From the NCBI RefSeq assembly GCF_056712565.1, contig NZ_CM160072.1: 64,000 bases of DNA; one strand, given 5' to 3'. The notes beneath the pieces were generated by a model. It was not told the DNA's origin. It worked only from the letters and a program-made list of their open reading frames with translations, and searched no databases. Positions 49,105 through 49,744 of the stretch are shown piece after piece (the first letter of the stretch is position 1; each line of letters begins with the position of its first letter). Both the position numbers and the translations under genes were made by a program.

Positions 49105-49619
49105 TTAGCGATTCTCGATGGACTGACGGAGCGTACCCGCTGTGGCATGAACGCTACCGCCTAAGTAGCGCACATCGTCGATGACCCAACACTGGCCTTC
49201 CTGAATCATTAACACTTCATCCTGCCAGCCCTGGTCACCCTGCTTGAGATCCACGCGCAATGGAATGTTACGGGCATCACGATTAGGGATAGTAGATGCA
49301 CTGGCAACGTGGGCGCTGTCTGGCAAGGTGGTTCGACTGGAGAACGGATCGCTGCTTAACAATTCACGATGACTATTATCGCGGCTGGCATCGCTAAGTA
49401 GGGTTGCCAGTTTGTCACTCAAATAGGGGCGTAGAGCGGTAATGTCATTGCCGCGATGTTGAATGCGGTAGTCATAGAACTGTTGAGCCACGCTATCAGG
49501 CCCCCCTGGACACAGGAACCGGTGCGGGGGCCGTTATCTTTATAAGCTGGCGTGACGGTGGTACAGGCACTGAGTAGCAGTGCGCAAGGGATAAGCATGG
49601 TCAATTTGCTATAGCGCAT
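49105..49619 (-). pseudogene. ybjP: Lipoprotein YbjP, reading frame interrupted by a 1-nt frameshift at a C6 homopolymer (pseudogene or sequence error)
   Basis: Signal peptide with lipobox (LLSAC) in ORF 49419-49643 and remainder in ORF 49105-49491 in another frame; join near 49501-49506 (CCCCCC). Confidence 0.6.
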
Positions 49620-49744
49620 GATGATTTCCTTATAAGCGAACACCTTGAAAGCGTTCTACGATAATAATGATATCCTTTCAATAATAGCGTATCAGTCCGA
49701 TAATGCTTTGAAGATCGAAGGCTTAGCAAACAAGGAGATCGATC

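Follow-up and report, generated by a model that had tools for sequence, protein, structure and literature searches.

The closest described counterpart of the gene examined here is ybjP of E. coli K-12 (b0865), whose product, an outer-membrane lipoprotein with a DUF3828 domain, was uncharacterised before 2025-26. Cryo-EM studies have since demonstrated that the K-12 protein binds TolC in a 3:3 arrangement, straddling adjacent protomers (bioRxiv 10.1101/2025.03.19.644130, 10.1101/2025.10.29.685381), and the work of 2025-26 found it present in both the AcrAB-TolC and MacAB-TolC pumps. According to the cryo-EM papers, YbjP is anchored by its lipidated cysteine (Cys19, the +1 residue), its linker follows the N-terminal helix of TolC, and its globular domain contacts TolC through K70, S107-N118, R122, E135, R151 and G155-A159. 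Solved YbjP chains are available in the PDB (9v52, 9qgy and 9tg4). Deletion of ybjP from K-12 leaves TolC levels and MICs unchanged, shows no efflux phenotype and shifts the abundance of few proteins. A second point of reference is provided by the poly-G/C contingency loci of surface genes in Neisseria, Haemophilus and Campylobacter, which the gene described below resembles in anatomy only: it too codes for an envelope protein and has a poly-G tract near the 5' end of its coding sequence, where the gain or loss of one unit shifts the frame.

The window, by which we mean the whole 64,000-nt stretch of DNA analysed, carries ybjP at the same locus as K-12 and in the same gene order (artP - ybjP - ybjQ - amiD). 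To judge from its sequence, this ybjP belongs to the YbjP/DUF3828 family as a pseudogene, not as a functional gene. Its features are as follows:

49627-49631, minus strand: Shine-Dalgarno-like AAGGA, intact, 7 nt upstream of the ATG (read from the sequence)
49105-49619, minus strand: ybjP pseudogene (PGAP coordinates in HS13-1 and alignment to K-12 ybjP, b0865)
49563-49619, minus strand: signal peptide and lipobox, intact, MRYSKLTMLIPCALLLSAC, the last codon being that of Cys19 (translation)
49501-49506, minus strand: homopolymer, G6 on the gene strand and C6 on the plus strand; the frameshift site, at codons 38-40 (CAG GGG GGc)
49419-49619, minus strand: frame-0 open reading frame (ORF) of 66 codons, still translatable (translation)
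49105-49500, minus strand: 3' part, specifying YbjP residues 41-171 with the whole DUF3828 domain, moved into the -1 frame with respect to the ATG (Pfam and PDB-chain alignment)

Around the run the plus strand reads GCTATCAGG CCCCCC TGGAC, with the C6 at exactly 49501-49506. The start codon (ATG, 49619-49617) and the original stop codon (TAA, 49107-49105), both on the minus strand, delimit a gene of 515 nt, as compared to the 516 nt expected. Translation in frame 0 from the ATG yields MRYSKLTMLIPCALLLSAC TTVTPAYKDNGPRTGSCVQGG, which includes the lipobox LSAC with Cys19 and is native up to VQGG. Following Gly40 there are 26 out-of-frame residues and then a TGA (49421-49419), so that the 66-codon ORF comprises 40 native residues, made up of the signal peptide and a 22-residue linker, and 26 foreign to YbjP. 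The remainder of the protein (PDSVAQQFYDY...SIENR) is encoded in another frame up to the TAA, and an uninterrupted frame joining anchor and domain is therefore absent from the window's ybjP.

The preliminary description of this DNA had proposed that ybjP has been disrupted at the C6 run, where the frame moves by one base, with the signal-peptide/lipobox part and the mature part in different frames; both translations indeed show the split at the run, and the frames and run position agree with that proposal. Its further statement that a C7 run would restore 171 codons also holds, since adding one G to the run in silico produces a single 171-codon ORF and sister alleles do carry C7 (G7 on the gene strand). 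Of the span it gave, 49105-49643, only the lower boundary stands: 49643 corresponds to an upstream in-frame GTG, whereas K-12 and PGAP place the start at the ATG at 49619.

Pfam searches located DUF3828 (PF12883) at residues 41-153, entirely downstream of the shift. The domain was recognised well above its gathering score both on the 128-aa ORF at 49105-49491 (E=6e-31) and on the protein of the intact sister allele (E=2e-31), and no Pfam match was found for the 66-codon frame-0 product. The repaired YbjP aligned to PDB 9v52 across residues 1-171 (E=2e-108), and chains 9qgy and 9tg4 were aligned as well. All of the globular-domain residues that contact TolC lie downstream of the frameshift, and the shift itself, at residue 40/41, falls on the linker/domain boundary.

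RefSeq records with the same sequence already list ybjP as frameshifted, and taken by itself the lesion is a routine homopolymer pseudogene. HS13-1 is identical to the window over 33353-50000, and PGAP labels its gene 'ybjP lipoprotein, frameshifted' with the same coordinates. Searching the literature for a ybjP pseudogene retrieved no paper on a frameshifted ybjP in the searchable literature; one Salmonella match in that search merely mentions ybjP among Fels-1 prophage genes. The run is the only G/C run of at least 6 in the gene and one of four in the 64-kb window, which has no G/C run of 7 anywhere. The three others lie at 24119-24124, 31381-31386 and 42236-42241.

In comparison with K-12 YbjP, the signal peptide and lipobox are the same and the repaired protein is identical at 161/171 residues, including every residue from 91 onwards. 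The window differs in that DUF3828 is not fused to the lipid anchor, the shift lying at codon 40/41, and in that K-12 ybjP has no G tract (GAA GGA GGC CCG). Nucleotide divergence from K-12 reaches 19% at 49400-49599 and 9% at 49200-49399, as compared to 0.5-6% in the neighbouring genes. For codons 20-100, dS is ~1.36 and dN/dS ~0.05; for codons 101-171, dS is 0.14. The divergent segment (window 49300-49600) has the appearance of an allele segment that is either old or imported and has been under purifying selection, and the G7 tract is confined to this non-K-12 allele class.

The original length of the tract can be read from close relatives. The preliminary description had suggested a comparison with K-12 ybjP; the alignment could be made, but the lost base cannot be placed from it, because K-12 lacks a homopolymer there (GTT GAA GGA GGC CCG GAT). 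Intact sister alleles in ST95 (WP_001298306.1, found in IHE3034, MS8345 and MS21324) are identical to the window's save for the tract, with nearly identical sequence over the surrounding 25 kb, and differ in carrying G7 and hence a single 171-codon ORF. In IHE3034 and MS8345 ybjP is base-for-base identical apart from the G7, and MS21324 matches the window over ~570 nt, including all of ybjP, the one difference being its reading CAG GGG GGG CCT. The same G7 reading was found at this position in 2009C-3133, in an ST131 strain and in strain 5132. Because G7 is all that sets its nearest intact counterparts apart, the window allele is the product of a G7-to-G6 contraction (C7 to C6 on the plus strand), which falls at codon 40/41. 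We also considered a missing base in the CC that follows the run, a placement derived from the K-12 alignment, and dropped it given that the closer intact alleles read G7 followed by CC.

The history that we propose for this locus starts from a G7 homopolymer (codons 38-40, CAG GGG GGG) in the ybjP allele class carried by ~40% of E. coli. One G would have been removed in the ancestor of one ST95 subclade, probably by replication slippage, and all sampled descendants, including the window genome, have kept G6. Translation now leaves the YbjP frame after Gly40 and terminates 26 codons further on.

To determine how widespread the broken allele is, we searched 5426 E. coli genomes with a 42-nt probe, each 28-nt seed word of which overlaps the run. 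G6 was found in 42/5426 genomes, 35 of these with identical flanks, and at least 30 complete genomes match the 751 bases around ybjP without a single difference. Carriers include S88, APEC O1, ATCC 11775 and JCM 20135 (we take the last two to be type-strain assemblies) and derive from humans, chickens, a duck, swine and a dog. All inspected records with G6 or G8 have the PGAP label 'frameshifted' on ybjP. Matches to the ybjP region also appear in a few records typed as plasmids (7 places by the 751-nt query, 3 in the tract-allele search), which may represent pieces of chromosome, either on F-prime-like replicons or on replicons assigned to the wrong type.

Most of the carriers belong to a subclade of ST95 with serotypes O1/O2/O45:K1:H7, which includes S88, APEC O1 and the type strain ATCC 11775. 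S88 and APEC O1 were previously placed in an ST95 subclade apart from UTI89, IHE3034 and PMV-1 (PMC6180223), and the type strain, isolated in 1941, has S88 as its nearest neighbour (PMC4334874). Over window positions 39001-64000 (25 kb), the window is 100% identical to eight G6 genomes. We aligned these 25 kb in seven genomes and found 10 variable sites, namely nine sites plus the tract, which is G6 in the window, S88, APEC O1 and ATCC 11775 and G7 in IHE3034, MS8345 and an O2:K1:H4 APEC strain. Two private markers unite S88 and ATCC 11775 (a C-to-T change at window-equivalent 40403 and the loss of 1 nt at 45909), and a T at 61740 is common to the window and APEC O1. No site in the 25 kb speaks against G6 having arisen once, prior to the divergence of these two sublineages, and the published trees are in agreement; the nine variable sites other than the tract show compatibility with such an origin and are not proof of monophyly, which for the ~31 G6 carriers draws on these few SNPs and on published trees of few strains. 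Two further genomes, RM14723 and 2015C-4136CT1, carry the window's own allele with G6, are absent from the top 25-kb matches and are probably not ST95.

The markers themselves fall in or near annotated genes. The change at 40403 lies in potG, where PGAP reports an internal stop in S88 (L021, 1379-2512) and resolves the same change in ATCC 11775 as a shortened potG (L023, 1424-2512). The deletion at 45909 falls between artJ and artM. Neither change is present in the window.

Taken together, these results make it very probable that ybjP was truly lost by frameshift in one ST95 subclade and that the pseudogene has been passed on vertically; a genuine pseudogene was among the options listed in the preliminary description. 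G6 is common to at least 30 assemblies and stably inherited, and the intact sisters have G7. Since G6 is present in both sublineages and in a type strain of 1941, the lesion is at least about 80 years old. No second lesion has accumulated in the pseudogene, ~30 copies being identical over 751 nt, which fits a recent origin and does not by itself prove loss of function.

The 5' part of the gene retains what is needed to be read. With its intact AAGGA, the 5' ORF is probably still translated, and the product predicted from the sequence would keep the signal peptide, the lipobox and the 22-residue linker and lack the globular domain. Given the Shine-Dalgarno-like site, the start codon, the lipobox and a Thr at position +2 after the lipidated cysteine, we infer that cells produce the truncated lipopeptide and target it to the outer membrane; at most 48 residues could reach it, consisting of Cys19, 21 native linker residues and 26 nonsense residues. 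The DUF3828 domain, with most of the TolC-binding residues, would not be made as a lipoprotein, and the retained linker would still provide some TolC contacts. The locus would therefore represent a natural null, or a severe truncation, of a TolC accessory lipoprotein, with TolC binding presumably lost and the truncated product meeting the fate suggested above. Because deletion in K-12 leaves TolC levels and MICs unchanged, loss of ybjP in a wild lineage is plausible and was probably nearly neutral under many conditions.

The significance of the lesion lies in its context, in that a major lineage of extraintestinal E. coli and the type strain would both be natural nulls for a TolC partner. A frameshift that arose naturally before 1941, in a globally successful lineage known from human extraintestinal infection and poultry disease, provides an independent sign that YbjP is dispensable in the wild. 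The lineage also offers nearly isogenic pairs for tests of YbjP function in stress and infection, namely S88 or APEC O1 against IHE3034 or MS8345. That ATCC 11775 is without an intact YbjP is relevant to studies of TolC and efflux that use it as a reference.

We next asked how the tract behaves across the species. Some 2264 genomes carry the tract-bearing allele class, and ~98% of them have G7, with 42 at G6 and at least 2 at G8. G6 was observed on at least six ybjP allele backgrounds, including the window's, and G8 on two. Outside the ST95 subclade, G6 occurs on alleles 5 (MS20645), 7 (AVS0662) and 9 (EcN_Sk) substitutions away from the window's, and also on alleles 27-29 substitutions away (O145, O157 AR-0428 and ETEC6335). 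The sporadic length variants also include O145 RM9154-C1, O145 RM12275-C1 and UTME-1. G8, which was found with an 82-nt query with longer flanks, is carried by APEC 102026 and Nord8, whose alleles differ from each other. Indels thus recur at this tract, either in cells or in sequencers, and the singletons may be assembly errors.

Such recurrence would be compatible with a reversible slipped-strand switch operating at appreciable frequency, with G7 as the ON state, G6 or G8 as the OFF state, and the window caught in the OFF phase, as the preliminary description had allowed. The position of the tract (codons 38-40, in the 5' coding region) is suitable for this, G7 being in frame and G6 and G8 out of frame, and all three lengths occur in the species on several backgrounds. 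As in the contingency loci mentioned above, both -1 and +1 variants are found, and a possible case of switching within one strain is seen in Nissle 1917, which is canonically G7 and of which the derived assembly EcN_Sk is G6. However, the ybjP tract differs from those loci in being short (7) and in having one length in ~98% of genomes, and tracts of 6-7 nt are shorter than those of classical high-frequency phase-variable genes. Moreover, the OFF state in ST95 is clonally fixed and not mixed among close relatives: all ~31 subclade members have G6 and all sisters G7. G6 has been kept through two SNP-marked sublineages, in many hosts and countries, since at least 1941, and the sporadic G6 and G8 cases elsewhere may be homopolymer errors of long-read assemblies. 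We therefore regard a reversible switch as very unlikely, the recurrent slippage elsewhere in E. coli notwithstanding. The ~98% prevalence of G7 together with the clonal fixation in ST95 is the pattern expected of a mildly hypermutable run and not of a contingency locus.

A bolder version of the same idea is that the G7 tract serves as a low-frequency switch of a TolC accessory protein, that the OFF state in the ST95 subclade was selected and is not neutral, and that the retained linker acts as a minimal TolC anchor. We consider this a long shot. If true, the selected OFF state could free the lateral surface of TolC for SlyB, it could alter envelope stress behaviour in blood or in the avian host, and the 22-residue lipidated linker, which the truncation spares, might still lie docked against the N-terminal helix of TolC.

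Another possibility is that the gene is leaky, with a -1 ribosomal slip, or insertion of a G by RNA polymerase, generating a small amount of full-length YbjP. In frame 0 the run and the base that follows it form G GGG GGC, a slippery heptamer of the X XXY YYZ type in the correct register, and a -1 slip at this heptamer would lead into the native sequence Q-G-G-P-D-S. Nevertheless, no downstream stimulatory RNA structure was detected, the 91 nt at 49510-49420 folding at -23.5 kcal/mol as compared to a shuffle mean of -20.8 (z = -0.87), that is, no better than shuffled sequence. Heptamers made of G only shift at very low efficiency when no stimulator is present. The two-frame arrangement is also derived and not conserved: a single ORF is found in ~98% of tract-bearing relatives and in every K-12-type allele. 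With the ancestral and sister genes plain intact ORFs, there has been no selection for recoding. These observations make a leaky gene highly improbable.

The last option raised in the preliminary description, that the source record miscounts the homopolymer through faulty sequencing or assembly and that ybjP is in truth intact, has next to no chance of being correct: homopolymer miscounts are common with some sequencing technologies, and the lone G6 or G8 in otherwise G7 lineages (O157 AR-0428, EcN_Sk and APEC 102026) could be such errors, but the identical 751 bases with G6 recur in at least 30 independent complete assemblies (~31 of the same subclade share the allele), S88 and APEC O1 among them were presumably sequenced with Sanger-era methods, and sister ST95 genomes are consistently G7, so that sequencing error is ruled out for this allele.

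For the genes around ybjP, a search for terminator or promoter patterns that would imply polar effects on artP returned nothing beyond chance. Further to the left, the window ceases to be colinear with HS13-1, which has the same ybjP allele, at position 33352. There, at 28322-33352, the end of a P2-like prophage adjoins ybjL and includes the following genes:

28322-31399: prophage tape measure
31396-31881: gpU-like tail protein
31878-32978: gpD-like late control protein
33036-33287: Ogr-type zinc-finger activator

An 8-kb query spanning the prophage-chromosome junction was at least 80% covered in 839/5426 complete E. coli genomes, and was 100% identical in SF-468, MS15052, APEC 16-1068 and others.
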